Source: Opitutaceae bacterium (lineage in GTDB: Bacteria; Verrucomicrobiota; Verrucomicrobiia; Opitutales; Opitutaceae). Taken from it: a stretch of DNA of 20,519 nucleotides. A program made the translations under genes and the position numbers. Below the pieces are notes generated by a model that saw only the letters and a program-made list of their open reading frames with translations, was not told where the DNA came from and ran no database searches. The stretch is taken from assembly GCA_036770745.1 (NCBI GenBank), contig DAIPIQ010000059.1, positions 1-20,519 on the forward strand, in the 5' to 3' direction. Positions 1-16,550 of the stretch are shown here, piece by piece (within the stretch, counting starts at the first letter, position 1; each line of letters begins with the position of its first letter).

Positions 1-135
1 GCTGACGACCGAGGTGGCGCGCCCCTCGCCGAGGGGCGCGAACCCGAACCGCGCGAACAAGACCCGACCGGAGCGGCGGCATCCCTGCCGCCGGAGCGAC
101 GCGCAACCGGCGGCGGGGACGCCGCCGCTCCGCCG

Positions 136-997: not shown

Positions 998-1204
998 GGT
1001 GTAATCGAAAGTGGTGGCAACCTGCCTTCGTGGGCCGGGGTTGATCCCCGGCTTTTTCGGCTCTCTCAGTCGGAAGCCGGGGATCAACCCCGGCCCACGA
1101 CCACGGCATGCAGGTTCACCGTGGTCGATGCGTCCGAATCATCCGCGGAGAACTCCGTCGGTCTTCAGCGGAACCGAGGCATGCCACCACTTCCGATTTC
1201 ACCC
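998..1204 (-). repeat. Copy A of a ~200-bp TIR-bounded palindromic intergenic element (MITE-like), in orientation opposite to copies B and C
   Basis: Terminal inverted repeats: GGTGTAATCGAAAGTGGTGGCA (998-1019) and TGCCACCACTTCCGATTTCACCC (1182-1204), 20/22 complementary. Internal perfect 25-bp stem: GTGGGCCGGGGTTGATCCCCGGCTT (1030-1054) pairs with AAGCCGGGGATCAACCCCGGCCCAC (1074-1098), with a 19-nt loop. The ~100-nt module at 1099-1181 is the reverse complement of modules 4524-4617 and 11556-11635. Intergenic between convergent genes. Confidence 0.85.
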
Positions 1205-1281
1205 TTCACAACTTGGAATCATCGCTCCGTGAACTTTCTCCCGCCTCTGTGCCCTCCGTGACCCGATAGGTCCGGATCGCT

Positions 1282-2142
1282 TCAGAGGCTCATCAACGCC
1301 ACGGCCATCTCGTTGAGCGGGGTGGGGATGCCGTGACGCCGGCCGAGGCGGACGATCACGCCGTTGCGCAGGTCGATCTCCGTGGGCCGTCCGGCGCGGT
1401 GGTCCGCGTTGAGCGAGTTGATGCCGTCCTCGGGCTCGGAGCGGGTGATCTCGAGCACGCGGTCGGCGATGCCCGCGTCGAGTCGTGCGCCCTCGGCCCG
1501 GCCCACCGCCGCGGCCTCCTCCACGATCGCGCGGATGAGCCCGGCTCCGGCGGGGTTGCGGGCGACGGCGTTGGTCCCGCGGACGATCGCGGAGACGACC
1601 CCGGAGGCGTTGAGGCAGAGCTTGTGCCACGCGACCGTCTTGAAGTCGTCGACGCGGCGGAAGCGGATCTCGGTCCCGGCGAAGTGACGTTCGAGTTCCG
1701 CCCCGAGCGCACCCTCGGGCACGTTGAGGGAGATTTCGCCCCGCTGCCGGATGCGGCCGGGTCCGTCGCGCTCCGCCGGGCCCATCACGACCACGGGAAG
1801 GATGCGATCGCGCGGGACGACGGAGGCGAAGCGTTCCACGTGTTCGACTCCGTTCTGGAGGACGGCGACCGGCGTGTCGGCCGCCCGTAGGCGCGGCAGC
1901 CAGTGTTGGGCGTCGGCATGGTAGCTCTTGGTCGCGACCAGGACCCAGTCGACGGGGGAGGCGTTCGCCGGATCGGTGAGGACCTCGGGCCGGACCGAGA
2001 GTGCGCCATACGGTGTCGCCACTTCGAGGGAGTCGAACGCCGTCCGGGCGCAGACGGTGACGGCGTGACGTCCTCCATTTCCCAGCCAGGCGGCGACCAT
2101 GCCGCCGATCGCTCCGGGTCCGATTACTGCGATGCGTGCCAT
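1282..2142 (-). CDS. panE: 2-dehydropantoate 2-reductase (ketopantoate reductase, ApbA/PanE family) protein
   Basis: N-terminal MARIAVIGPGAIGG Rossmann motif and overall ApbA/PanE family architecture (~287 aa). I chose the internal ATG (residue 36 of the 321-aa track ORF) as start, because the upstream residues are low-complexity. Family-level assignment; the specific substrate is not certain. Confidence 0.75.
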   Translation of the reverse strand: MARIAVIGPGAIGGMVAAWLGNGGRHAVTVCARTAFDSLEVATPYGALSVRPEVLTDPANASPVDWVLVATKSYHADAQHWLPRLRAADTPVAVLQNGVEHVERFASVVPRDRILPVVVMGPAERDGPGRIRQRGEISLNVPEGALGAELERHFAGTEIRFRRVDDFKTVAWHKLCLNASGVVSAIVRGTNAVARNPAGAGLIRAIVEEAAAVGRAEGARLDAGIADRVLEITRSEPEDGINSLNADHRAGRPTEIDLRNGVIVRLGRRHGIPTPLNEMAVALMSL

Positions 2143-2258
2143 GCGGGGAAGACGACAAAGGCGGTCGAAGTTGTCCAACCCCGTTGCGGGGTGTTGGTGG
2201 GGTTCGCCCGAATCGCGGGTGTTGTTGCCGTCGTCCGCCGGCGGCACAGGTTGGGGGG

Positions 2259-3113
2259 ATGGAGGCGATGGACGCGGCGGAAGTCGGACGGTTGACGGAG
2301 TGGCGACTCGTCGTCGCGACGTTCGTGCTGGCGGGATTGCTCGCGTTGGAATCGGTCGCGCCCCTGTTTGCGGGGCGTCGCCGGCGGCTCGCGCACGTCG
2401 GCGTCAACCTCGCGCTCGCCGGGCTCAACGCGCTCGTCGCGGCGGCGTTCGCCTTCGCCCTGCTCGCGGTCACCGAAGGGGCGCGGGCGCAAGGGTTCGG
2501 ACTCCTCCGCCTCGTGGAAGCGCCGGTCTGGGCGCAATGGGTCGGCGCGATCCTTGCGGTGGACTGCTGGCAGTACTGGTGGCACCGGCTCAACCACCGG
2601 GTGCCGTTGCTCTGGCGGTTTCACGCCGTGCACCACGCCGACGCGGAGATGGATGCGAGCACGGGCGTGCGCTTCCATACCGGAGAGATGGTCCTTTCTT
2701 TCGCGGCCCGGCTGGTGGTGCTGCCCCTGCTGGGGGTGACGGTGCCGCAGGTGCTGCTCTACGAGGCGATCGCGCTGCCGGTGATCCTCTTCCACCACGC
2801 CAACGTGCGCCTCCCGGGCGGCGTCGACCGGGCGTTGCGCTGGCTGATCGTCACGCCGTGGATGCACGTGGTCCACCATTCGCGGCGACGGCCGGAGACG
2901 GACTCGAACTTCACCAGCCTCTTCTCGGTCTGGGACCGGGTTTTCGGATCGTTCCGGCTGCGCGCGGATCCGGCCGGGGTCGAGATCGGGCTGGACGGTT
3001 ACGAAGAGCGGGAATGGCGCGGGCTCCCCGGGCTGCTCGCGGCCCCGTTCCGGCGGCGCGGCACGGAGGGCGGCGAACAACCTCGCCGGAACGGCGGGCG
3101 CCGGGCCGGGTGA
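2259..3113 (+). CDS. sterol desaturase / fatty acid hydroxylase superfamily integral membrane protein
   Basis: Three histidine boxes typical of the family: WHRLNH (HX3H), HAVHH (HX2HH) and HVVHH (HX2HH). Several hydrophobic segments. The start is placed at the ATG of MEAMDAAEV, preceded by GGGGGG. The upstream part of the track ORF (2136-) overlaps panE and is Cys/Arg-rich junk. Confidence 0.7.
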   Translation: MEAMDAAEVGRLTEWRLVVATFVLAGLLALESVAPLFAGRRRRLAHVGVNLALAGLNALVAAAFAFALLAVTEGARAQGFGLLRLVEAPVWAQWVGAILAVDCWQYWWHRLNHRVPLLWRFHAVHHADAEMDASTGVRFHTGEMVLSFAARLVVLPLLGVTVPQVLLYEAIALPVILFHHANVRLPGGVDRALRWLIVTPWMHVVHHSRRRPETDSNFTSLFSVWDRVFGSFRLRADPAGVEIGLDGYEEREWRGLPGLLAAPFRRRGTEGGEQPRRNGGRRAG

Positions 3114-3114
3114 T

Positions 3115-4437
3115 TCACTCCAGTAGCGCGCCGTCGCGACGGAGCCGATCCTGTAGTTCCGCGACGGGTACGTCAGCGACCGGGATGCGGCGGCCGGCGG
3201 CGAGGGCGGCGGCCGTCCCGACGGCCTGGCCCATCGCCATCGTCTGGGCCATCGAGCGGACGCTGGCGTGGGCGTCGTGGGTGGCGGAGAAGCAGCGGCC
3301 GGCGACGAGGACGTCCCGACCGTCGCGGGGCACGAGGGTGCGGAAGGGGATGCCGACGCACTCGCCGGGCGGCAGGTAGGCCCAGACCGTGTCGTCGCCG
3401 CCGTGGTGGTCCTCGATGGGGGCGCCGCAGAGGGCGATCTGGTCGTCGAACCGGCGCGCCGAGAGCACGTCGTCGCGTGTGAGCCGGTAGCGCCCGTGGA
3501 CGCGGCGGGTCTCGCGCACGCCGATCTGCACGCCGAACGAGGCGAGCTCCGCCCGCTCGTAGCCGGGCACGCGGTCGCGGAGGAAGCGGACGTATTCGAG
3601 GGCCTGGCGACGACCGTCCATCTCCGCTTCCGAGAGCAGGCGGGGGTCGGTGGCGTTGCGGAACACGCCGTCGCGCGTCGCGGTCGAGGGCAGCCGGGTC
3701 ATGACCGTGGCGGTCATGTGGTCGACCGGGGTGATGTGGTCGCTGCCCTCCTTGCGCGGGAGGGCGTAGCCGTCGGCGGCGGCCGCCGCCATGAGTCGGT
3801 GGAACTCGGCCTTCGGCACGGTTTTGCGGCGCGGGAGGTCGACGTTCACCATCTTGAAGGTGGTCGTGAGCGTTTGCGCGGGGTCGGTCGCGCCCGCGAG
3901 TTCGTAGCCGATCCCGGCGAAGTGGCAGACGTCGGCGTCGCCGCTCGCATCGATGACGATGCCGGCGGGGCAACGGCGGAGGCCGGCCTTGGTCGCGACG
4001 ATCAGCCCGGTGATCCGGTCCGCCTCCCGCTCGACGTCCTGGACCCAGGCGTTGAGGAGAACGTCGACGCCGGCCTCGCGGGCGAGTTCCTCCCAGACGA
4101 CCTTCAGGTATTCGGGATGGTAGGTCACCCCCGTGCCGGCGCCGTAGGTGTTGGGGCGCTCCAGCCAGGCGTGGTGGCGGCGGAGGCGATCCATGACGTC
4201 GTCGGTGAGGCCGGCGACGACTTTGCGCGGCTCGGGTCCTGGCGTGTAGAAGCCGTAGAACGTGTCGAGGACGGCGGTCGAGTTGCCGCCCAGGAACGGC
4301 AGCCGCTCGAGGAGGAGCACGCGGGCGCCGCGGCGGGCCGCGGCGATGGCCGCGACGACCCCGGCCGAGCCGGAGCCCACGACGAGGACGTCGTGGGGGT
4401 GGAGGGATTCGAGGGCGGGACAGTGGATGGTGATCAC
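3115..4437 (-). CDS. FAD-dependent oxidoreductase (FAD_oxidored-type, GSGSAG dinucleotide-binding motif)
   Basis: Motif DVLVVGSGSAGVVAAIAAARRGARVLLLE. The ORF track extends to 4614, but the first ~41 residues are encoded by repeat copy B, and a near-identical peptide arises from copy A. I therefore place the start at the GTG (V60, approx 4437). A TTG at approx 4479 is an alternative. Start confidence is low; the gene itself is confident. Confidence 0.7.
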   Translation of the reverse strand: MITIHCPALESLHPHDVLVVGSGSAGVVAAIAAARRGARVLLLERLPFLGGNSTAVLDTFYGFYTPGPEPRKVVAGLTDDVMDRLRRHHAWLERPNTYGAGTGVTYHPEYLKVVWEELAREAGVDVLLNAWVQDVEREADRITGLIVATKAGLRRCPAGIVIDASGDADVCHFAGIGYELAGATDPAQTLTTTFKMVNVDLPRRKTVPKAEFHRLMAAAAADGYALPRKEGSDHITPVDHMTATVMTRLPSTATRDGVFRNATDPRLLSEAEMDGRRQALEYVRFLRDRVPGYERAELASFGVQIGVRETRRVHGRYRLTRDDVLSARRFDDQIALCGAPIEDHHGGDDTVWAYLPPGECVGIPFRTLVPRDGRDVLVAGRCFSATHDAHASVRSMAQTMAMGQAVGTAAALAAGRRIPVADVPVAELQDRLRRDGALLE

Positions 4438-4494
4438 GGTGTGCGGGAGGGAGGGTTCGGTTCGCCGAGTGCGAGGCAAGTCACGATCCCGGCG

Positions 4495-4722
4495 GATCGT
4501 CGAGGGGGGCAAGAGTGGTGGCAGTCTTCGGTTCTGCTGAACACCGACAGCCGTCTCCGCGGCCGGTTCGGAGGCATCGACCACGGCCACCACGATGCCG
4601 TGCTCGTGGGTCAAGTGCTCGTGGGCCGGGGTTTACCCCCGGCTTCCGACCAACAGACGCCGCAGAAGTCGGGGATGAACCCCGACCCACGACAGGCGGT
4701 TGCCGTCACTTTTGATCAAACC
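4495..4722 (+). repeat. Copy B (partly decayed) of the ~200-bp TIR-bounded palindromic element
   Basis: Left end ..CAAGAGTGGTGGCA (approx 4510-4523); right end TTGCCGTCACTTTTGATCAAACC (approx 4700-4722); these are diverged TIRs. The module at 4524-4617 has a ~20-nt insertion relative to A and C. The imperfect hairpin at 4618-4693 has arms CTCGTGGGCCGGGGTTTACCCCCGGCTT and AAGTCGGGGATGAACCCCGACCCACGAC, with several mismatches. The right end overlaps the last codons and stop of the methyltransferase gene. Confidence 0.8.
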
Positions 4723-5900
4723 CCATCGAGGGCGTGGCGCTCAACGCCGAAGAAATCCTTCAGCGCCCGGATCCGGGCGAGCGCCCGGTCGCGGTCGGCC
4801 GCGGCCGGCGCGGGGCGGAGCACGCCGGCGAGGAGGAGGTTGCGTGGCGTGTGGCCGGCGCCGACGAATTCGATGACGCGGGTCGCGTAACCCGCGGCCT
4901 CGAGGTGGAGCGCGCGCAGGCCGTCGGTCAGCCACTCGGCCATGCGCTCGGCGAGGATCCCGTGGGCGAGGAGCGGGGCGAGCGGCTCGGGCGCGCCCAT
5001 CCTCGGGCGCAGCTCCTGGTGGCAGCAGGGCGAGACGACGAGGATCCGCGCGCCGGCCATGATGCCACGGCGGATCGCGTCGTCGGTCGCGGTGTCGCAG
5101 GCGTGCAACGCGATCAGAAGGTCGAGACGCGGGGGCAGCTCGACCGCATCGATCCGCGCGGCGACGAAGCGGAGGCCGTCGCACCCGGTGGCTCGGGCGA
5201 CGGCGTTGGTCGTATCCACGAGCTCGGCACGCGCCTCGACGCCCGTCACCTCCGCCGGCAGGCCGAGGGTGTGGCGGAGCAGGTGCCAGACCCCGAAGGT
5301 GAGGAGGCCCTTGCCGCAACCCATGTCGACGACCTTCACGTCGCCCCCGGGAGGCAACGCGGCGTCCTTCACGAGGTGGGCGAGGATCTCGAGGAACCGC
5401 TCGAGCTGCCGGTGTTTGTCGGCCATCCGGGCGCGGACCTTTCCATCGGGCGCGCAGAGGCCGAGCGCGATCAGCCAGGGCTGCGCGCGGGCGTCGAGGA
5501 GCGGGTTTCCCGCCGCGTCGTGGTCGCGCGGCGGTGTGGCGGCATGGGTGGCGCGGTGGGCGACGAGCTGGAGTCCACCGCGCGGCGAGGGGCTGAGCTG
5601 CCAGTTGCGGTCGGTCGTCTCGACCACCGCGCTGCGGAAGGCGGCGGGGACCCGCCCCGCCAGCCACGTCGGGACCTCGGCGAGCGGGAGGTTGCGCGTG
5701 GTGTCGCGCTTCGGTTCACGCAGCGTGAGCGAGAGCACGGGTTCGCCACGGAGCACGACCATCCGGCCGATGATGCGCTCCGTCGCCGTGTCGGCGACCG
5801 GCTTCGTGAGCAGGAGGCGGACAAAGGAGCCGCTCGCGAGACTCGCGGAGACGTGACCGATGAACGCGTCGACCTGCGGGAGCGGGATCGCGGTTGTCAC
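4716..5900 (-). CDS. class I SAM-dependent methyltransferase (Methyltransf_32 / METTL25-like) with ~180-aa N-terminal domain of unknown function
   Basis: Motif I VVDMGCGKGLLT, followed by LHACDTATDDAIRRG and SPCCHQE. GTG start at 5900 overlaps the stop of the upstream lactonase gene (GTGA). Confidence 0.75.
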   Translation of the reverse strand: MTTAIPLPQVDAFIGHVSASLASGSFVRLLLTKPVADTATERIIGRMVVLRGEPVLSLTLREPKRDTTRNLPLAEVPTWLAGRVPAAFRSAVVETTDRNWQLSPSPRGGLQLVAHRATHAATPPRDHDAAGNPLLDARAQPWLIALGLCAPDGKVRARMADKHRQLERFLEILAHLVKDAALPPGGDVKVVDMGCGKGLLTFGVWHLLRHTLGLPAEVTGVEARAELVDTTNAVARATGCDGLRFVAARIDAVELPPRLDLLIALHACDTATDDAIRRGIMAGARILVVSPCCHQELRPRMGAPEPLAPLLAHGILAERMAEWLTDGLRALHLEAAGYATRVIEFVGAGHTPRNLLLAGVLRPAPAAADRDRALARIRALKDFFGVERHALDGV

Positions 5901-6727
5901 GTCAGACGGTAGGTTGCGGTCGCGGTTCCGCCGAGGATCGCGGCGCGCTCGTCCGCCGAGAGCGGGGCGAGGGCGCCTTCGACGAACCGGAACCAGCGTG
6001 CGTAGTCAGAGGCGACGAGACAGACCGGCCAGTCCGAACCGAACATCAGTCGCGACGGGCCGAACGCCTCCAGCACGACCTCGAAGTAGGGCGCGAGCAG
6101 TCCCGGCGTCCACGCGCGGCCGACGACCTCGGTGACGAGTCCGGAGAGCTTGCAGGCGACGTTCTCGCGCCGCGCGAGGTCGGTGATGGCGGCGCGCCAT
6201 TCGGGAGGCGGAGGACCGTCGATCCGCGGCTTCGCGATGTGGTCGAGGACGAACGACAGTCGCGGGTGCCGGTCGACGAGATCGATCGCGGCGGGCAATT
6301 GCGCCGCGCGGATGAGGAGGTCGTAGACGAGGTCGCGGTCGCCGACGGCGCGCAGTCCCGCGTTGAAGTCGGCGCGCGCGAGGAAGCCCGGATCGGGCTC
6401 GCCCTGAACGACGTGGCGCAAGCCCCTCAAGGCGCGCGCCGTCGCGAGCTCGTCGAGGATTCCCGCGATGCCCGGATCGGCGAGCGGAGCCCAGCCGACC
6501 ACGCCGCGGACGAACGGATCCGCCGCCGCTTGCGCGAGGAGCCAGCGGGTCTCTTCAAGCGACTGCCTGGCCTGGACCGCGATCGTCCCGGCGACCCCGC
6601 GGGGTTCCGCGACCTCGCGCAGATCCGCAGGGAAGAAATCGCGCCGGATGACCGCCATCGAGTCGTCGATCCAGGAGTATTCAGCGGGCGCGTAGCGCCA
6701 GAAATGGTTGTGGGCGTCGATCGTCAC
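5897..6727 (-). CDS. amidohydrolase-2 family lactonase (LigI / L-fucono-1,5-lactonase-like)
   Basis: N-terminal IDAHNHFW (HxH metal ligands), internal LDHIAKP, and C-terminal FGSDWP motif characteristic of the LigI/FucL lactonase clade. Only the last 276 codons of the 1118-aa track ORF are credible. The GTG start at 6727 overlaps the stop of the upstream gene (GTGA). Confidence 0.8.
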   Translation of the reverse strand: MTIDAHNHFWRYAPAEYSWIDDSMAVIRRDFFPADLREVAEPRGVAGTIAVQARQSLEETRWLLAQAAADPFVRGVVGWAPLADPGIAGILDELATARALRGLRHVVQGEPDPGFLARADFNAGLRAVGDRDLVYDLLIRAAQLPAAIDLVDRHPRLSFVLDHIAKPRIDGPPPPEWRAAITDLARRENVACKLSGLVTEVVGRAWTPGLLAPYFEVVLEAFGPSRLMFGSDWPVCLVASDYARWFRFVEGALAPLSADERAAILGGTATATYRLT

Positions 6728-7686
6728 GGCGTGGCCGGGGCTGGTTCGTCGAGCCCGAGAAGGCGGGCCGGATTCCGTTTCACCATCTCGTCGATCTCGT
6801 GGCGGGAAACACCCAGCGCCAGGAGACTCTCGAGGAAGATCGCGAGGCCCTCGGGCGGGCTGGGGTTGTCGGGCTGGCCGAAGTCGGAGGCGAGGACGAT
6901 GTGCCCGGCGCCGACGGTGCGGATCACCTCCACAAGATCCGCGAGCGGGACGGGCGCGCGAGAGAAGTTCGGAGGAACACCGCCCCGGGGGCGGGCGGAC
7001 GGCGCGTGGGTGAGCCAGACGCATTCGAGGAAAGCGCCGAGGTCCGCGAGCGTGCGCAGGTCTCCCGGCGTGGAGGCGATCGTCGGCGAGAGCGCGTGGG
7101 TGACGAGCATCCGACGGACGCCCGCGGCCCGCGCGGCGCGGAGCACGACGATCGACTCCTCGGCCGAGGAGTGGCCCGTGGCGAGCACGAGGTCGTGCTC
7201 CGCGATCAAGCGGAAGATCTCCGCGAGCGCCGGCGCGGGACGCCCCGCCTCGACCACCGGCACGTGCGGGCGGTCGACACCGGCGCGGACCACCTCGTTG
7301 GCGGCGTCGCGGGTGGGCAACCAGACGATGCGACCGCGCCCGCCCTCCATCGCCACCATCTGGCGGACGGCCTCGGCGTTGAGCCCGCCGACGGCGAGGT
7401 TGAGCACGATTCCGCCGAACACCTCGATCCCTCCGACCTCTCGCATCGCGAGGCGCGCCCGGTCGGCGGTCATCGTCACGTGGTTCTTCAACACGATCGC
7501 CCTCAGGCCGCGTTCGCGGGCCTCCCGGGCGAGCGCGAGATCGTCGAGGCGACGGGGGACGACGTCGGGTCCCGCGTGGCAGTGCAGGTCGATCGCGCCC
7601 GCGAGGTTCGGGAGCTCGATCGCGCCCGTGCACGGCGACGCCAGGAGGGCGAAGAAGAACGAAGGGTAAGGGAGCCACGTTCGCAT
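6724..7686 (-). CDS. exported amidohydrolase-superfamily metal-dependent hydrolase (IDLHCH motif)
   Basis: ATG start. Predicted Sec signal peptide MRTWLPYPSFFFALLASPCTGA, then AIDLHCHAGPD (HxH metal motif) and LASDFG near the C-terminus. First gene of a three-gene translationally coupled operon. Confidence 0.65.
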   Translation of the reverse strand: MRTWLPYPSFFFALLASPCTGAIELPNLAGAIDLHCHAGPDVVPRRLDDLALAREARERGLRAIVLKNHVTMTADRARLAMREVGGIEVFGGIVLNLAVGGLNAEAVRQMVAMEGGRGRIVWLPTRDAANEVVRAGVDRPHVPVVEAGRPAPALAEIFRLIAEHDLVLATGHSSAEESIVVLRAARAAGVRRMLVTHALSPTIASTPGDLRTLADLGAFLECVWLTHAPSARPRGGVPPNFSRAPVPLADLVEVIRTVGAGHIVLASDFGQPDNPSPPEGLAIFLESLLALGVSRHEIDEMVKRNPARLLGLDEPAPATP

Positions 7687-7819
7687 CGGGCGCGAGCAAA
7701 GGGACGAGGTGAGAGGGGCTCAACTCCGGGCTTGGGCGGGGCGGCGAAAACTCAACAGATTGCGCGGAGACCCCCTCGCGACCGACCTGCGGCATTCGAC
7801 ACCCTTCAGCCCACTTCGC

Positions 7820-8872
7820 ATGAACAAGACCCACTCCATCGCCCTCTACCCCGGAGACGGCATCGGCGTCGACGTGACCGAAGCCGCGGTCGAGGTGTTG
7901 ACGGCGCTCGTGGACCGGCACGGGGGCTTCGGCCTGAGGTTCACCCGCTTCGAGTGGGGCGTGGAACACCACGCGCGCCACGGGGTGGTCGCCCCGGATG
8001 GATTTCTCGAGACCTTGAAGGGGTTCGACGCGATCTTTCTCGGCGCCGTCGGCTGGCCGGCCCGGCTTCCCGACAACGTCACGCTGAAGCCGTTGATCCG
8101 GATCCGCCAGGGTTTCGACCTCTACGCGTGCGTCCGGCCGGCGCGGACCTTTCCGGGGGTGCGCAGCCTCCTCGCCGGCGCACCGGCGATCGACATGGTC
8201 GTCGTCCGCGAGAACTCCGAGGGCGAGTACGTGGACGTGGGCGGGCGCTTTCACGAAGGCGCGCCCGAGGAGTTCGCCGTGCAGAGCGCGCTCCACACGC
8301 GGCGGGGAATCGAGCGGGTGTTGCGCTTCAGCTTCGAGCTCGCACGCACGCGCCGCCGGCGCCTCACCGTCGCGACCAAGTCCAACGCCCAGCGGCACGC
8401 CTACGTCCTCTGGGAGGAGGTGGCGGCGGAGCTTTCCGGAGAGTATCGCGACGTCGAGCTGGACCATCAGCACATCGATGCGCTCACCATGAACTTCGTG
8501 CGTCGCCCGGAGTCCTTCGACGTCGTGGCGGCCTCGAACCTCTTCGGCGACATCCTGACCGATCTCTCCGGCGCGATCACCGGCGGAATCGGGCTGAACC
8601 CGTCGGCCAACCTGGATCCGACCCGACGCAGTCCCTCGCTCTTCGAGCCGGTGCACGGCTCGGCCCCCGACATCGCGGGGAAGGGAGTCGCCAACCCGAC
8701 GGGTGCGATCCTCGCCGCCGCGATGATGCTCGAGTGGCTGGGCGAGGCCGTGGGCGCGGGTCGTATCCGGGAATCGGTGACGGCGACGCTCGCGGCGGGC
8801 CGGACGACCCCGGACCTCGGGGGGAGTCTCTCGACCGCGGCGTTCACCCGTGCGGTCGTGGCCGCCCTCTGA
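7820..8872 (+). CDS. tartrate dehydrogenase/decarboxylase / D-malate dehydrogenase (isocitrate-isopropylmalate dehydrogenase family)
   Basis: Strong similarity to E. coli DmlA/TtuC-type enzymes along the whole length: IALYPGDGIG, FDAIFLGAVGWP, VVRENSEGEY, ATKSNA, ASNLFGDILTDL, SLFEPVHGSAPDIAGKGVANP. Start at the ATG of MNKTHSIAL (350 aa). Confidence 0.85.
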   Translation: MNKTHSIALYPGDGIGVDVTEAAVEVLTALVDRHGGFGLRFTRFEWGVEHHARHGVVAPDGFLETLKGFDAIFLGAVGWPARLPDNVTLKPLIRIRQGFDLYACVRPARTFPGVRSLLAGAPAIDMVVVRENSEGEYVDVGGRFHEGAPEEFAVQSALHTRRGIERVLRFSFELARTRRRRLTVATKSNAQRHAYVLWEEVAAELSGEYRDVELDHQHIDALTMNFVRRPESFDVVAASNLFGDILTDLSGAITGGIGLNPSANLDPTRRSPSLFEPVHGSAPDIAGKGVANPTGAILAAAMMLEWLGEAVGAGRIRESVTATLAAGRTTPDLGGSLSTAAFTRAVVAAL

Positions 8873-8960
8873 CGGCGGGCGTTTCAACAATGTGATGCCG
8901 CGGGTCGCTTGCCTCTGCGCGGCGGCGGGGTATCCCGGAGGCGAAGCCCCACGAAAGATC

Positions 8961-10193
8961 ATGCCGCACTCCCCCGATCCGCTCTCCCGTCGTCGTTTCT
9001 TGAAACAAGCCGCCGTCCTCGGAGGCGCGGCCGCCGCTCCCGCGGTCTTCGGCGCGCCGGGCGCCGCGGCGGCCGGCGGCGTCTCGTCGCTCTCCGAAGT
9101 CAAGGTGACGGGCGTCAAATGCCACATCGTGCACGAGCTCGCGCTCGTCGAGTTGAGCACCGACGCGGGCGTCACCGGCTGGGGCGAATGCGCTTGGGAC
9201 GGCGGTCCGCTCATGAAGCGTTTCGTCGAGGACCTGCTCGCGCCGGAATGCATCGGCGAGAGCGTCCACGACGTGCGCCGGCTCTGGGACTGGATGTACT
9301 ACGAGAACCACGACCTCGGCCCGGGCGGGGCGCTGCCCAACGCGATCGCCGGGGTGGACATCGCCTTGTGGGACGCGCGGGGGCGGCTGCTCGGGCTGCC
9401 GGTGCACCAGCTCCTCGGCGGCGCCTACCGCGACAAGATCGAGGCCTACGGGAGCGTGCCCGTGCGACGGGGCCGGGTGAGCGTGGAGGATTGCGTGAAG
9501 CGCTGCGTCGCCTTCGTCGAGCAGGGCTACAAGTGCGTGAAGGTGCGGATGCAGATCCGCGAGCACCACCTCAACCCCGATCCCGATCCGACCTTCGCCT
9601 ACGTCGCCGCGGTGCGGAAGGCGGTCGGCGACGGGATCGAGCTGATGGTCGACGCCAACAACGGCTACTCCGCCCAGCGCGCGATCCAGACGGCGATCCG
9701 CCTCCACGAGGAGTGGGGCGTGAACTATTTCGAGGACCCGGTCTCCGACCAGAACAACCTGGAGATGGCGCAGGTCACCGCCGCGCTCGACCGGGTGGAG
9801 ATCGTTGCCGGGGAGAAGTGCTACACGCGTTGGCAGATCAAGGAGCTCATCACGGTGGGCGACGTCGACATCCTGAACCCCGACGTCATCAAGGCCGGCG
9901 GTTTCACCGAGATGGACCGTATCCATCACCTGGCGACGTGTTACCAGAAGCCGATCCAGCTCCACAACACGCGCCCGACCGTCTCGACGGCCGCCTCGCT
10001 TCAGTTGATGGCGACGACCAACCAGGTCGCGCGCTACATGGAGTTCCCGATCATGAACGAGACCCTGGAGGCGCAGGCGCGGCTCTTCGACAAGGACGTG
10101 CGGCCGCGGGACGGCTGGCTGCACCTGCCGACGGGGCCCGGCATCGGGATCGAGCCCGATCGCGCGGCGTTGCGCGCGGCTACGGGCGCATAG
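8961..10193 (+). CDS. mandelate racemase / muconate lactonizing enzyme (enolase superfamily) protein with twin-arginine (Tat) signal peptide; probable acid-sugar dehydratase/cycloisomerase
   Basis: Canonical Tat motif SRRRFLKQAAVLGGAAAA, followed by an Ala-rich h-region. Enolase-superfamily hallmarks: capping-domain start VKVTGVKCHIV..GVTGWGE, the KxK motif (YKCVKVRM), and metal ligands in VDANNGY, FEDP and ILNPDVIKAGG. No alternative in-frame start exists between the Tat motif and the first beta-strand. Confidence 0.8.
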   Translation: MPHSPDPLSRRRFLKQAAVLGGAAAAPAVFGAPGAAAAGGVSSLSEVKVTGVKCHIVHELALVELSTDAGVTGWGECAWDGGPLMKRFVEDLLAPECIGESVHDVRRLWDWMYYENHDLGPGGALPNAIAGVDIALWDARGRLLGLPVHQLLGGAYRDKIEAYGSVPVRRGRVSVEDCVKRCVAFVEQGYKCVKVRMQIREHHLNPDPDPTFAYVAAVRKAVGDGIELMVDANNGYSAQRAIQTAIRLHEEWGVNYFEDPVSDQNNLEMAQVTAALDRVEIVAGEKCYTRWQIKELITVGDVDILNPDVIKAGGFTEMDRIHHLATCYQKPIQLHNTRPTVSTAASLQLMATTNQVARYMEFPIMNETLEAQARLFDKDVRPRDGWLHLPTGPGIGIEPDRAALRAATGA

Positions 10194-10259
10194 CCGTGGC
10201 GGTGGCGAGGAGGGTGGACGCCGGCCTCTGAACGGCGTTGCTTCGCGTGCCCTCCGCCC

Positions 10260-10340
10260 CACGCCTCTCGGCGAGAGGCGTGCCACCTCGGAAAATCGAA
10301 AAGCGCCAGCCAGGTAGCGCGCCTTTCGCCGAAAGGCGCG
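10260..10340. terminator. Two tandem GC-rich hairpins between convergent genes (candidate bidirectional terminators)
   Basis: Hairpin 1: CACGCCTCTC-GGC-GAGAGGCGTG (approx 10260-10282), a 10-bp perfect stem. Hairpin 2: CGCGCCTTT-CGCCG-AAAGGCGCG (approx 10318-10340), a 9-bp stem. Between them lies the A-rich run GGAAAATCGAAAAG. Coordinates are approximate, plus or minus 2. Confidence 0.35.
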
Positions 10341-10408
10341 AGAGCACGACGTGGTCCTGGGGCCCGCGTCCACCTTTCAGGATTGAACGTCCGTCGCGGG
10401 CCGTCCGT

Positions 10409-11464
10409 TCAGGCCGGGACGGCGGCGGCGGGAGCGCGGGCCGGACGGAGCGTCGAGCCCTCGTTCCACGTGCCCTCGAGGAGGAGCTGCTGCGGCAGGG
10501 CGGGCACGCCGCGGTCGTCGCGGTGGAGCATGTCGACAAGCAGGTCCACCGCCATCTGACCGACCTGTGAGGGATGTTTCAGCATTCCGGAGGCCTCGGG
10601 CAGATCGGATCCGTGGCGGACGAGCGAGTGCAGGGCCACGCCGATCCCCCCGGGCACCTCGTGGCCGGCTTCGCGGAGGGCCGTGACCACTTCCGGGAGT
10701 TTCGAGATGATCACGTCGGGACGGCGCCGCTCCACCCAATCGAGGAAGGCCCGGCGATCCCAGGCGTCGACGAGAAGCGGAGGCAGCCGATCGGCGCGCC
10801 GGAGCGTCTGCTGGTGGACGAGGAAGGCCGCGGACCAGTTGCAATCGACGCGGTCGTCGTGCTCGCGAAACCCGACCAGCGCCGGGCGGGTGTAGCCCCG
10901 GGCGTGCGTCTCCGCGAGCAGTTGGGTCATCATCCGGTAGGCGTGGTGGTAGACGTTGTGGAGCCGGGGCGCGATGCGGGTGCGGCCGATCGTCACGGCG
11001 GAGAATTCGCTCCAGCGCAGGTCGATCTCGCGCGGGTGGTGTTGGGGGGCGAGGAGCACGCCGCGGATGCCGCGGGCCACGAGGATGTCGCTGAGGCGGG
11101 CGCCACCCATGCCCGGTTCGCCGGCCCAGAAGTGGTCGAGCCGGTAGCCGCGCTCCTGGGCGCGGGATTCGGCCCCGTTGAAATAGAGGCACTGGCAGGA
11201 GTTTTCCCGCCAAAGGTCCCGGGTGGGATGGTTCGTGATCCAGGCGAGCACCGCGCGTTCGCAGACGGGCCGGCGGCCGACGCGGTAGGCGTTGAGCGCG
11301 GCGAGCATCGGGTCGGGGCGGTAGCCGAGGGCGTCGGCCGCGGCCTGGATGCGGTGACGGGTGGCCGGGGAGATGCTCGGGTGGTTTCGCAGCGCGAGCG
11401 AGACGGTGGAATAGTGACAGCCGGCGTGGCGCGCGATGTCGCGGGTCGTGGGGCGGGGAGTCAT
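10409..11464 (-). CDS. LacI family transcriptional regulator
   Basis: N-terminal HTH TTRDIARHAGCHYSTVSLALRN (LacI-type), then a periplasmic-binding-protein-like sugar-binding domain. Start at the ATG of MTPRPTTRDIA (351 aa); upstream track residues are low-complexity. Confidence 0.85.
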   Translation of the reverse strand: MTPRPTTRDIARHAGCHYSTVSLALRNHPSISPATRHRIQAAADALGYRPDPMLAALNAYRVGRRPVCERAVLAWITNHPTRDLWRENSCQCLYFNGAESRAQERGYRLDHFWAGEPGMGGARLSDILVARGIRGVLLAPQHHPREIDLRWSEFSAVTIGRTRIAPRLHNVYHHAYRMMTQLLAETHARGYTRPALVGFREHDDRVDCNWSAAFLVHQQTLRRADRLPPLLVDAWDRRAFLDWVERRRPDVIISKLPEVVTALREAGHEVPGGIGVALHSLVRHGSDLPEASGMLKHPSQVGQMAVDLLVDMLHRDDRGVPALPQQLLLEGTWNEGSTLRPARAPAAAVPA

Positions 11465-11489
11465 TTCTGCAGGCACTGTAGGCCGAGGC

Positions 11490-11506
11490 GGAGTTGGTTC
11501 AACTCC
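11490..11506. promoter_or_regulatory. Candidate operator: 7-bp inverted repeat GGAGTTG-gtt-CAACTCC ~25 nt upstream of the LacI start codon
   Basis: Perfect inverted repeat seen directly in the sequence. Its position fits autoregulation of a LacI-family regulator. No second copy was found upstream of the TBDR. Confidence 0.25.
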
Positions 11507-11534
11507 GGTCGGCGGAGGGGCGGAGCGGAGGCCA

Positions 11535-11712
11535 GTGCAATCAAGAGTGGTGGCATGCCTCGGTTCTACGGAGGACCGACGGGCTTCTTCGCGGCCGATT
11601 CGGACGCATCGACCACGGTGACCTTGCATGCCTTGGTCGTGGGCCGGGGTTGATCCCCGGCTTCCGAATGAGAGCGCCGAAAAAGCCGGGGATCAACCCC
11701 GGCCCACGACTG
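11535..11712 (+). repeat. Copy C of the ~200-bp palindromic element (right TIR truncated at the 3' end of the ArgH-family gene)
   Basis: Left TIR-like end GTGCAATCAAGAGTGGTGGCA (11535-11555). Module at 11556-11635, near-identical to the reverse complement of copy A. Perfect 28-bp stem GTCGTGGGCCGGGGTTGATCCCCGGCTT (11636-11663) pairs with AAGCCGGGGATCAACCCCGGCCCACGAC (11683-11710). Loop CCGAATGAGAGCGCCGAAA is similar to the copy A loop. Confidence 0.85.
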
Positions 11713-11732: not shown

Positions 11733-13220
11733 TCAGCGGGCCCGGTCGGCGAGGGCGTCGAAACGGCGGCCGAGGGCCTCGGAGGCTCGGCCCAGGCGCT
11801 CGCGTTCACCGGCGGTCCAGTCGCGGTTCGCGGCGGTGTCCCGCTCTTGGTCCTTCAACATCCGCGCGGTCTCGGCGGGTTGGGGACCGCCCACGCCCTT
11901 GCGGGCGCGGACGATCTCGAGGGGATCGAAGGCGCGGCGCAGTTGCGCCTCGGAAAGCGGTAGTTCGGCGTCGGCCACACGGCGGTAGATCGCGGCGACT
12001 TCCTCGCGGGTGAGGTCGACCGGGCGTTTGCCGAGAGAGCGACCGTGGGTCGTCAGTTCGGAGGCGACACGATAGCCGATGCGGAAGGGGACGTCGGCTT
12101 CGCGGAGAAGCGTGTCGGCGAGCTCGGTCATCGTCGAGTAGTCGGCGTCGACGTGGCCGCGCAGGCGGACCGGATCGATCACGAGGCCGTCGAGGATCCG
12201 GCCGAGCTGGGCGTACATCGAACCGGCGGTCTCGGAAAACACGAGCAGGCGCGCGAGGTGGTCCTCGCGGACGTCCTTCACCTCGTAGAGCGGCGTATTG
12301 TGGGCGAAGAAGGCGGAGGCGTGGCCGTTGGCGACCACCTCGCTGGCGGAGAGGCGGAGGCGCTCGATCGCGCTGGGGTTGCGCTTCTGCGGCATGATGC
12401 TGCTGCGGCTGGTGACGTTGTCGCCGAGGTAGATGCCGGGGGCGGGGTCGTCGTATTGGACGATCAGCGACTGGGCGAAGCGCCCGATCCCGAGGGCGGA
12501 GAGGCCGAGGGCGGCGGCGTATTCGACCTTGCTGTCGGCGGTGGAGACCATGATCGCGTCGTAGGCGTTCTCGACCAGGCCATCGAAGCCCAGCAGCTCG
12601 GCAAGCAGGGGGCGGTCGAGCGGGAATCCGGAGGTGGTGAAGGCCCCGGCGCCGAGCGGGCTGAGGTTGATCCGGGCGTGGATCTCGCGGAGGCGTCGCT
12701 GGTCGCGGGCGAGACCGGCGTCGAAGGCGAGGAGGAAATGGGCCACGGTCGTCGGCTGGGCCTGCACGGCGTGGGTGAAGCCCGGCATCACGCTCTCGAG
12801 GTGTGCGCCGGCCATGGCTTGGAGGCGGGTGCGGACGGCTCCGATGTCGTCGACGCGGGCGAGGAGGTGCTCGCGCAGGATCATCCGGTTCATCGCGGCG
12901 TTGAGGTCGTTGCGGCTGCGCCCGATGTGGAGGTTGGAGGCCTCGGGCCCGATCCGCGCCTGGAGGCGCCGTTCGAGGTCGAGGTAGTTCGTGGAGCGGT
13001 CCTCCTCGCGGGCCGCCATCTCCGACGCGGTGGCGCGCAAGGCCGCGGCGATCCGGGCGGCTTCGTCGGCTGGGAGGATCGCGCGCTCGGCGAGCATCAC
13101 GATCTGGGCGCGGTTCGTCTCGATGAGGTGGTCGTGCAGGTCGCGCTCGGCGGCGGTCGTACCGAAGGGGGCGAGGACGGCGAGGGCGAGGAGGGTGGGG
13201 CGAAGATCGGATGGGCTCAT
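11733..13220 (-). CDS. argH: argininosuccinate lyase family protein (fumarate lyase superfamily), atypical N- and C-termini
   Basis: ArgH-like throughout the core: VMPGFTH..QAQPTT, SPLGAGA, TSRSSIMPQKRNP (family signature, ArgH-type Q), MTELADTLL, VPFR. It lacks the conserved N-terminal WGGRF segment. In its place is MSPSDLRPTLLALAVLAPFGTTAAE, which looks like a signal peptide, and there is a ~50-aa C-terminal extension. The start is taken at ATG 13220, not the upstream TTG of the track. Confidence 0.75.
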   Translation of the reverse strand: MSPSDLRPTLLALAVLAPFGTTAAERDLHDHLIETNRAQIVMLAERAILPADEAARIAAALRATASEMAAREEDRSTNYLDLERRLQARIGPEASNLHIGRSRNDLNAAMNRMILREHLLARVDDIGAVRTRLQAMAGAHLESVMPGFTHAVQAQPTTVAHFLLAFDAGLARDQRRLREIHARINLSPLGAGAFTTSGFPLDRPLLAELLGFDGLVENAYDAIMVSTADSKVEYAAALGLSALGIGRFAQSLIVQYDDPAPGIYLGDNVTSRSSIMPQKRNPSAIERLRLSASEVVANGHASAFFAHNTPLYEVKDVREDHLARLLVFSETAGSMYAQLGRILDGLVIDPVRLRGHVDADYSTMTELADTLLREADVPFRIGYRVASELTTHGRSLGKRPVDLTREEVAAIYRRVADAELPLSEAQLRRAFDPLEIVRARKGVGGPQPAETARMLKDQERDTAANRDWTAGERERLGRASEALGRRFDALADRAR

Positions 13221-16528: not shown

Positions 16529-16550
16529 TGCCACCACTGTTGATGACATT
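16529..16550 (+). repeat. Solo terminal-repeat remnant of the palindromic element family
   Basis: TGCCACCACTGTTGATGACATT matches the element right ends: TGCCACCACTTTCGATTACACC (copy A) and TGCCGTCACTTTTGATCAAACC (copy B). The preceding CTTCTGCGCCGATTCGC weakly resembles the module end. Confidence 0.4.

Follow-up and report, generated by a model that had tools for sequence, protein, structure and literature searches.

A low-copy family of ~205-bp nested inverted repeats in an Opitutaceae genome, possibly a decaying MITE/REP-type element

What kind of element is a ~205-bp noncoding repeat, composed of two nested inverted repeats, that recurs in the genome of an uncultured soil-type Opitutaceae (Verrucomicrobiota) bacterium, and why is its innermost part so well preserved? 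The window, i.e., the whole stretch of 20,519 nt that we analyzed, holds three copies (A, B, and C) and one possible solo terminus (remnant D), all inside 16 kb (Table 1). A sequence-only reading had counted three full copies and one remnant; three dispersed copies are indeed present, but C is incomplete, and the remnant, best placed as in Table 1, lies beyond the interval first reported to hold the family. Unit sizes across copies A to C range from 179 to 221 bp. Reverse-complemented A and C are 89% identical across 181 nt, and B is ~75% identical to each of them; the alignment bears out the earlier observation that A runs in the opposite direction to B and C. The sequences flanking the copies do not align. 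The same copies are present, without a single difference, in a second, independent metagenome-assembled genome (MAG), with the two MAGs being 99.7 to 99.95% identical; thus, the copies are not an assembly artifact.

Each copy has the same arrangement, in which a ~90-nt module bearing two short hairpins is followed by the inner hairpin. The module and the outer termini are coconserved with the hairpin at 75 to 84%, indicating that all 205 bp form the repeated unit. The repeat is noncoding: the 17 A/C differences fall 7/6/4 over the codon phases, revealing no codon periodicity, and a six-frame translation found no homolog among 5.8 billion predicted proteins/clusters. Two details of the module had been described differently. 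The palindrome GGCATGCC, said to occur twice per copy, has one exact site each in A and C and none in B, with the second site matching at 7 of 8 positions; and the insertion in B, located in P3, measures 14 nt rather than 20.

Table 1 Coordinates of the repeat copies and their parts in the window
Feature	Coordinates	Strand	Remarks
Copy A	998..1205	-	Sole copy with both termini intact; covariance model (CM) score, 239.8 bits
Copy B	4502..4722	+	Diverged copy; CM score, 166 bits
Copy C	11534..11712	+	Left terminus, module, and perfect hairpin, without right terminus; CM score, 180 bits
Possible solo right terminus (remnant D)	16529..16548	+	TGCCACCACTGTTGATGACA; 16/20 match to right end of A
Copy A inner hairpin (P4)	1028..1100		27-bp perfect arms, 19-nt spacer; arms hold GCCGGGG-N5-CCCCGGC
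Copy B inner hairpin	4619..4693		22/26 arm pairs Watson-Crick, 2 G.U, 2 C.A
Copy C inner hairpin	11636..11710		28-bp perfect arms, 19-nt spacer
Copy A outer inverted repeat, low-coordinate arm	998..1019		GGTGTAATCGAAAGTGGTGGCA
Copy A outer inverted repeat, high-coordinate arm	1182..1203		TGCCACCACTTCCGATTTCACC; pairs with 998-1019, 2 mismatches

The outer inverted repeat has the core AGTGGTGGCA, with ends that read roughly TGNAATC...GATNAMA, and its inverted termini span 14 to 27 bp in A and B: 22 to 27 bp with two mismatches in A and 14 to 18 bp with G.T pairs in B. The terminal core AAGTGGTGGCA (≤1 mismatch) occurs five times, compared with 0.07 expected. Remnant D supplies the fifth match; beyond the 10-mer, its support is marginal (alignment score of 16.5 versus a null of 11.8 ± 1.8). 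Terminal inverted repeats had been attributed to all three copies, and we find them in A and B, but C has the left terminus only: its similarity to the other copies ends right after the hairpin, and the 40% identity beyond that point is at the random level. In B, the outermost ~10 nt on the left have diverged. More generally, conservation is lower at the outermost bases than in the inner core, an unusual pattern for ends recognized by a transposase and one that counts against a MITE/REP assignment. Target-site duplications, a proposed check of that assignment, are not visible: none of ≥3 bp was found at any plausible boundary, with A being the only informative copy, and the flanks of A share at most a 2-bp CT (chance, 1 in 16).

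The inner hairpin has arms of 26 to 28 bp, and each arm is itself palindromic, a REP-doublet-like architecture. The arm palindrome has a 7-bp stem and a 5-nt loop, CGTGG (GTGG) is found at the outer end of each of the six arms, and the two inverted arms, 19 nt apart, form one long hairpin. The stems of A and C had been called perfect and that of B mismatched at about six positions; the former holds over 27 bp in A and 28 bp in C, but the latter comes to 4 non-Watson-Crick pairs of 26. The loop is conserved, as had been noted, with 17 of 19 aligned positions matching between A and C. Within the arms, A and C differ at 0 of 52 positions, compared with 17 of 118 (14%) outside (Fisher p = 0.0018); arm conservation relative to the rest is also seen for the other pairs (A-B, p = 0.006; B-C, p = 0.015). 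Perfect stems therefore reflect constraint rather than youth, and the proposed division into recent (A and C) and old (B) insertions does not hold. In the window, the arm motif was found neither as a singlet nor as a doublet outside the three 205-bp units.

All copies are intergenic, as the earlier description had it, or overlap a gene terminus, and they sit 0 to 80 nt behind stop codons in the gene calls of the second MAG. Copy A lies between convergent genes (g1 stop, 924; ApbA stop, 1282). Copy B lies between a methyltransferase stop and a FAD-oxidoreductase start (4437), and its last bases supply the methyltransferase stop codon (4716-4718). Copy C is 22 nt behind the stop of an argininosuccinate-lyase-like gene (11733) and 69 nt ahead of a LacI-family start (11464), and the remnant is between the stop of a Band_7 gene (16588) and the start of a TonB-receptor gene (16179). 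B, C, and the remnant have a single orientation relative to codirectional flanking genes, with which A is compatible, a consistency that is not statistically significant with three informative sites. The copies are confined to a TonB-receptor/LacI/catabolic-enzyme region; the adjoining 14 kb, which carries housekeeping genes, contains none. They are 3.5 to 7 kb apart, separated by several genes on both strands. These multigene, two-strand spacings, together with the inversion of A and termini that differ from RYYYAAC/GTTRRRY cores, led us to reject integron attC sites, and no integrase domain was found.

Searches for relatives point to a low-copy family. Beyond the 16 kb that contains the copies, the other 19 kb of available genome yielded no more, including 14.4 kb of adjoining genome that was also scanned with the CM, a result that counts against mobility; nor did ~170 kb of sequence from relatives, pattern scans of GTDB, JGI, and IMG/VR, or phages and plasmids. 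The 5.8-billion-cluster protein database likewise contains no open reading frame (ORF) running through such a hairpin. Since additional copies are absent from both the adjoining genome and the protein clusters, we consider the family low copy. The nearest relatives (up to 84% identity for DapL and 68% for the lyase) are not syntenic at the copy sites. The reported lack of a transposase in the window extends to 35 kb of genome, in which we detected no transposase domain, RAYT, or Y1 transposase. The possibility that the repeat is a known RNA found no support: there is no tRNA or tmRNA in the sequence and no matching Rfam family, with only generic miRNA-model hairpin hits at 26 to 41 bits (thresholds, 72 to 100).

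Could the conserved arms act on transcripts of the upstream genes? On the gene-sense strand of A and C, the first arm forms a 9-bp GC-rich hairpin followed by U5, 22 to 110 nt after the stop codon; the TTTTT is on the + strand in A (sense to g1) and on the minus strand in C (sense to the lyase gene). GGCCGGGGTTGATCCCCGGCT plus TTTT(T) on the gene-sense strand of A folds at -17.5 kcal/mol, and its equivalent in C folds at -22.3 kcal/mol. Host hairpin plus T-run terminators at 13265-13238(-) and 10320-10303(-) resemble these arm hairpins. The likeness to intrinsic terminators is a GC-rich hairpin plus U5 behind a stop codon; unlike in intrinsic terminators, the hairpin in A and C forms part of a far larger repeat, and the U-run in B is broken (UUCUG). 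No element hairpin was listed in a consensus terminator scan, which counts against a terminator role.

MITEs are defined as elements of 70 to 300 bp with 15- to 30-bp terminal inverted repeats (Di Nocera et al. 2013, PMC3733652). The MITE assignment made by the sequence-only reading agrees in part with our results: the repeat is ~205 bp long, noncoding, and dispersed and has inverted termini in A and B, but it shows no target-site duplication, and no transposase lies within 35 kb. Our best reading, in which we have about even confidence, is that of a lineage-restricted MITE/REP-type element, low in copy number and decaying, that has been kept as a putative terminator or 3'-end hairpin. The unit would have spread as a nonautonomous MITE/REP-class element, mobilized in trans by an enzyme whose gene lies elsewhere in the genome. 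By now the family would be old, its copies being 11 to 25% diverged and two of four sites lacking a terminus; the truncation of C, the diverged left end of B, and the solo end at D all suggest decay. Selection may hold the inner arms identical, with termination or 3'-end protection the likeliest reason: in A and C, the first-arm hairpin and U5 would act as an intrinsic terminator for the upstream gene's transcript, and the full hairpin would protect the transcript's 3' end.

Strand-specific signals bear on other readings. Folding potential is very strong in the copies, with minimum free energies (MFE) between -114 and -129 kcal/mol (z between -3.3 and -11.4) and with A at -129 kcal/mol (z, -10.8), and the forward strand folds 1.9 to 5.8 kcal/mol more stably than the reverse in all three. 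In the outer helix, six of six transition mismatches are G.U on the strand opposite the flanking genes and C.A on the other (binomial p of about 0.03; 8:2 and p of about 0.11 with the inner hairpin included). This bias fits a role as RNA or single-stranded DNA on the nongene strand better and counts against a terminator. Together with five outer-helix pairs that changed on both sides between A and B and yet stay paired, these signals are what would be expected if the repeats were stand-alone structured small RNAs of ~200 nt in which a closing helix surrounds three inner hairpins, encoded on the forward strand (A, -; B and C, +) and antisense to flanking genes. We nevertheless think this unlikely. 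The conserved unit has no promoter-like or terminator-like signal on the forward strand, no Rfam match, and no homolog found by the CM in ~200 kb, and C, in which the 3' half of the closing helix is missing, keeps the rest of the structure. Conservation of the inner hairpin is at the sequence level and not compensatory, with 1 double change among its 26 pairs, and transposon subfamilies would likewise be expected to show matched changes in their two termini. Covariation exceeds that in 496 to 498 of 500 shuffles, but with three sequences such statistics are weak.

Tolerance of G.T on one strand would also suit single-strand recognition, as in a true REP/REPIN, whose single-stranded DNA hairpins are copied by a RAYT (an IS200/IS605-like tyrosine transposase); here, the active part would be the inner doublet, inserted into a carrier palindrome that makes up the rest of the unit. 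The arms, whose strict conservation would suit recognition by a protein, are short palindromes flanked by GTGG, one base off the GTAG tag, and pair into one long hairpin, and the window holds a second short palindrome family. REP superfamilies are defined by a terminal GTAG or CGTC tetranucleotide, GTAG REP families are reported in Opitutus terrae, and REP dimers occur nested inside longer palindromes (PMC3733652). However, the tag is GTGG/CGTG rather than either of these, the arm palindrome is never free of the 200-bp units in the window, no RAYT is encoded in 35 kb, and the coconservation noted above makes the whole 205 bp the unit; we regard this origin, too, as improbable. A more general proposal, that the unit is a strand-specific folded nucleic acid, either a new ~200-nt four-helix antisense RNA at gene junctions or a new GTGG-tagged single-stranded DNA hairpin element copied by an HUH/tyrosine enzyme, seems to us distinctly doubtful; if either version were true, the invariant inner hairpin and an outer helix whose mismatches are G.U/G.T only would be functional signatures. 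Finally, the repeats might be immobile, putative protein-binding palindromes (bound, for example, by gyrase, a nucleoid protein, or a regulator) that have been copied to a few of the intergenic regions in a catabolic locus. The arms and the AGTGGTGGCA core are conserved at the sequence level and the copies cluster near catabolic genes, which speaks for this, as does an apparent resemblance, judged by the operator consensus, of the termini to LacI-type half-sites (TGAAATCG / CGATTACA). Yet a 205-bp unit with three further helices far exceeds any operator, and A, between convergent gene ends, has no promoter there to regulate; we consider this proposal very unlikely.

Under the MITE/REP-type reading, the closest parallels, drawn by architecture and not by sequence, are Correia/NEMIS of Neisseria, ERIC, RUP, and Bcr1, gene-adjacent bacterial MITEs whose RNA folds into long hairpins (PMC3733652). 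The repeat shares with them a size of 70 to 300 bp, the lack of coding capacity, inverted termini of roughly 15 to 30 bp in A and B, an intergenic position near gene ends, whole-element hairpin potential, and a possible effect on termination or mRNA stability. It differs in having no visible target-site duplication or known parent insertion sequence, only three to four known copies, poorly conserved outermost bases, and an extra, better-conserved inner perfect hairpin. With REP doublets/REPINs and BIME mosaics it has in common two inverted short palindromic units with a conserved 4-nt flank downstream of ORFs, and with REPs an element end that gives a stop codon, as REPs can (Di Nocera et al. 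2013, PMC3733652), a dimer nested in a longer palindrome, and the occurrence of REPs in Opitutus terrae. Unlike REP doublets/REPINs, it carries a GTGG tag, has no free units in the sequence available and no RAYT within 35 kb, and apparently has a low copy number.

The repeat is thus of an ordinary bacterial kind, the family itself being undescribed, and it opens no long-standing question. For annotation, it accounts for long spurious ORFs that cross intergenic regions and draws attention to a stop codon that comes from a repeat; it may also delimit operons within a sugar-acid/TonB utilization locus. If our reading is true, the family would be another lineage-specific miniature palindromic repeat, in the poorly studied Opitutaceae, and a small case of a host retaining what is left of a mobile element for the sake of its hairpin.

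The complete MAG contig of the uncultured member of the Opitutaceae (Verrucomicrobiota), 20,519 bp at 69.5% GC, carries three copies, A, B, and C, of a noncoding ~205-bp repeat built from nested palindromes and set in unrelated flanks. As the sequence-only reading had it, A is inverted relative to B and C: reverse complemented, it aligns with C without gaps at 89% identity over 181 nt. B is ~75% identical to each of the others and carries an insertion that we measured at 14 nt, not the 20 nt first reported. A second, independent MAG (GCA_964523035.1) is 99.7 to 99.95% identical across the region, with zero differences within the copies, ruling out an assembly artefact. The terminal core of the repeat occurs five times versus 0.07 expected; at the fifth match the alignment past the 20-mer is marginal, so this site is graded a possible solo terminus. 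At a site 77 nt from copy C, within the opening codons of the LacI-family gene, 14 of 15 nt agree with the beginning of the hairpin arm; at E = 0.8 in a genome of 70% GC, this may be coincidental, or the site may be a piece of another arm.

Repeat copies and other sequence features of the window
Feature	Position	Orientation or strand	Description
Copy A	998-1205	inverted relative to B and C	~205-bp repeat
Copy B	4502-4722	+	~205-bp repeat
Copy C	11534-11712	+	~205-bp repeat
Possible solo terminus	16529-16548		TGCCACCACTGTTGATGACA; fifth match to terminal core
Arm-like match	11444-11458		GGTCGTGGGGCGGGG
Short palindrome, site 1	9-38		about CGCCYCTCGSCGAGRGGCG, flank GAGGTGGC
Short palindrome, site 2	10262-10291		same family
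Short palindrome, site 3	10318-10343		same family
GC-rich hairpin	69-132		CGGAGCGGCGGCATCCCTGCCGCCGG / CCGGCGGCGGGGACGCCGCCGCTCCG
Intrinsic terminator	13265-13238	-	between TonB-receptor and lyase genes
Ordinary terminator	10320-10303	-	
Lyase-like gene	11733-13220		argininosuccinate-lyase-like
Indel-rich stretch	14645-14677		within TonB-dependent receptor gene

An alignment of the six available ends places the unit boundary at approximately TGNAATC...GATNAMA. The outer inverted repeat holds an invariant core, AGTGGTGGCA / TGCCACCACT in the B/C orientation, and pairs as an outer helix of 22 to 27 bp in A and of 14 to 18 bp, several G.T pairs included, in B. C had been taken for a full copy, but its right terminus is absent and similarity ends directly past the hairpin. 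The ~90-nt module carries two short hairpins; GGCATGCC, described as occurring twice per copy, is present in its exact form once in A, once in C, and not in B. The inner hairpin (26 to 28 bp with a 19-nt spacer) pairs without a mismatch in A and C, and every arm is itself palindromic (GCCGGGG-N5-CCCCGGC). Folding of a whole copy yields -114 to -129 kcal/mol on either strand, and the z-scores range from -3.3 to -11.4.

The arms are conserved in excess of the rest of the repeat. Between A and C, 17 of 118 aligned positions differ outside the arms but none of 52 inside (Fisher p = 0.0018); the contrast recurs in A-B (p = 0.006) and in B-C (p = 0.015). The perfect stems of A and C, previously read as a sign of recent insertion, thus reflect constraint. 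The constraint is on the arm sequence itself, and the copies are more than decaying insertions; self-correction of a palindrome would leave arms complementary without making copies identical. The substitutions lack codon periodicity, so it is not a protein that is constrained, and a coding element was rejected.

A stop codon precedes each copy. Two convergent gene ends flank A at 77 and 79 nt, the methyltransferase stop codon falls inside the final bases of B, and the hairpin of C ends 22 nt past the lyase stop and 69 nt ahead of the LacI start; by sequence reading, a promoter-like TTGAAC-16-TACAGT belonging to the LacI gene itself lies outside copy C. Orientation relative to codirectional flanking genes is the same for B, C, and the possible solo terminus and compatible for A, a consistency that comprises 3 informative sites and is not statistically significant. 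The surrounding genes are ordinary: ketopantoate reductase, fatty-acid hydroxylase, FAD oxidoreductase, methyltransferase, amidohydrolases, an isocitrate/isopropylmalate-type dehydrogenase, an enolase-superfamily enzyme, the LacI-family regulator, the argininosuccinate-lyase-like enzyme, and a TonB-dependent receptor. The absence of a transposase from the window, noted earlier, extends to transposase, integrase, and Y1 transposase domains across 35 kb of host genome.

A compositionally distinct island was considered and rejected, as none was seen. The best homologs of the lyase-like gene are in Acidobacteriota MAGs (68% identity), whereas the housekeeping LL-diaminopimelate aminotransferase (DapL) encoded 7 kb past the window points to Opitutaceae (closest relative at 84% identity, named matches there at about 74 to 76%). 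Horizontal transfer may therefore have brought in the catabolic cluster in which all the element copies lie, though GC content marks no clear island. The two MAGs show just one indel-rich difference, in the TonB-dependent receptor gene, where 6 bases are inserted and substitutions cluster; the contigs of the second MAG are also interrupted between window positions 14034 and 14534.

The window also contains a second, shorter family of GC-rich palindromes. Its first two sites are 90% complementary across 30 nt, and the second and third fall between the convergent ends of the MR_MLE and LacI genes. Within ~150 bp of the first site there is a break in both MAG assemblies, a pattern expected of a multicopy repeat. 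A separate GC-rich hairpin (26 bp, 92% complementary) adjoins the contig end, just upstream of the first ORF.

Searches for the family elsewhere, as the sequence-only reading had proposed, yielded no further copies. None was found in 14.4 kb rightward of the window, walked through the second MAG; at the left edge, the ends of the two assemblies are no more than 150 bp apart. About 170 kb of the nearest relatives, ~75 kb around lyase homologs and ~92 kb around Opitutaceae DapL homologs (76 to 84% identity), gave no match with nhmmer or with a covariance model derived from the three copies. Exact-pattern scans, which diverged family members could escape, returned 20 matches to a module 20-mer among GTDB species representatives, in unrelated phyla and confined to the 20-mer, hence attributable to chance, and one chance match of only 28 nt to a hairpin-arm 25-mer in JGI metagenomes. 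In IMG/VR, the terminus pattern had no match and the small-palindrome pattern found 3 generic hairpins only; blastn against plasmids and phages had no match. Concatenated six-frame translations matched nothing among 5.8 billion protein clusters; this database includes proteins of the host MAG, making hundreds of copies in the host genome unlikely. The negative result also speaks against a high copy number in any genome sampled, that of the host included. ARAGORN detected nothing, and Rfam, searched on both strands at E ≤ 1, gave only miRNA-model hairpin matches far below threshold; a known RNA family, an outcome that would have overturned the earlier claim, was rejected.

The reading that we favor, at about an even chance, is an old, low-copy, nonautonomous mobile element of the MITE/REP class, of which the host has kept the inner hairpin. 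Its past movement would have relied on an enzyme acting in trans, and the hairpin would most likely serve the upstream gene as an intrinsic terminator or as a hairpin protecting its 3' end. The strand evidence conflicts. On the gene-sense strand (plus for A, minus for B and C), A and C have a first arm that folds into a GC-rich 9-bp hairpin with U5 behind it (-17.5 kcal/mol in A, -22.3 kcal/mol for the equivalent C segment), which resembles two ordinary terminators of the window; the U-run is broken in B, and a terminator scan of the window did not list the element hairpins. The terminator between the TonB-receptor and lyase genes (12-bp stem, -24 kcal/mol, then TGTTTTT) shows that canonical terminators of the hairpin-plus-T-run type are in use in this organism. 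The forward strand (minus for A, plus for B and C) folds 1.9 to 5.8 kcal/mol more stably than the reverse in all three copies, its outer-helix transition mismatches are all G.U (6/6, 0 C.A), and five outer-helix pairs are doubly changed between A and B with pairing kept. These observations would fit a structured sRNA on that strand, which we nevertheless consider unlikely: the G.U:C.A ratio of 8:2 once the inner hairpin is counted is not significant, the conserved unit contains no forward-strand promoter or terminator, half of the closing helix is missing from C, and paired changes in both termini are also expected from transposon subfamilies.

A genuine REPIN-type element, mobilized by a RAYT as single-strand DNA, is likewise improbable. 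The arms do form REP-like doublets flanked by GTGG, and Di Nocera et al. (2013, PMC3733652) report that Opitutus terrae has REP families, that REP dimers can lie within longer palindromes, and that REP ends can supply stop codons; however, the tag is neither the GTAG nor the CGTC of known REP families, free units are absent from the window, and no RAYT was seen in 35 kb. We give still less credence to a strand-specific folded RNA or single-strand-DNA element with GTGG-tagged hairpins, and immobile protein-binding palindromes appear very unlikely. GTGG/CCAC enrichment within the elements was set aside as evidence, being only 2- to 3-fold among copies that are not independent. Integron attC sites, a tRNA-like end (GCCACCA), and an IS1-like end (GGTGA...) were also weighed and dropped for missing their defining features.

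The favored mobile element can be likened both to Correia/ERIC-type MITEs and to REP doublets. It resembles MITEs in size, in being noncoding, and in its dispersed copies; inverted termini are present in two of the three, the target-site duplication that the earlier MITE proposal called for was not seen, and the element belongs to no Rfam family. With three copies known and a mechanism that would hold no surprise, its interest is modest, and we regard the repeat as a lineage-specific palindromic intergenic repeat of a known kind.
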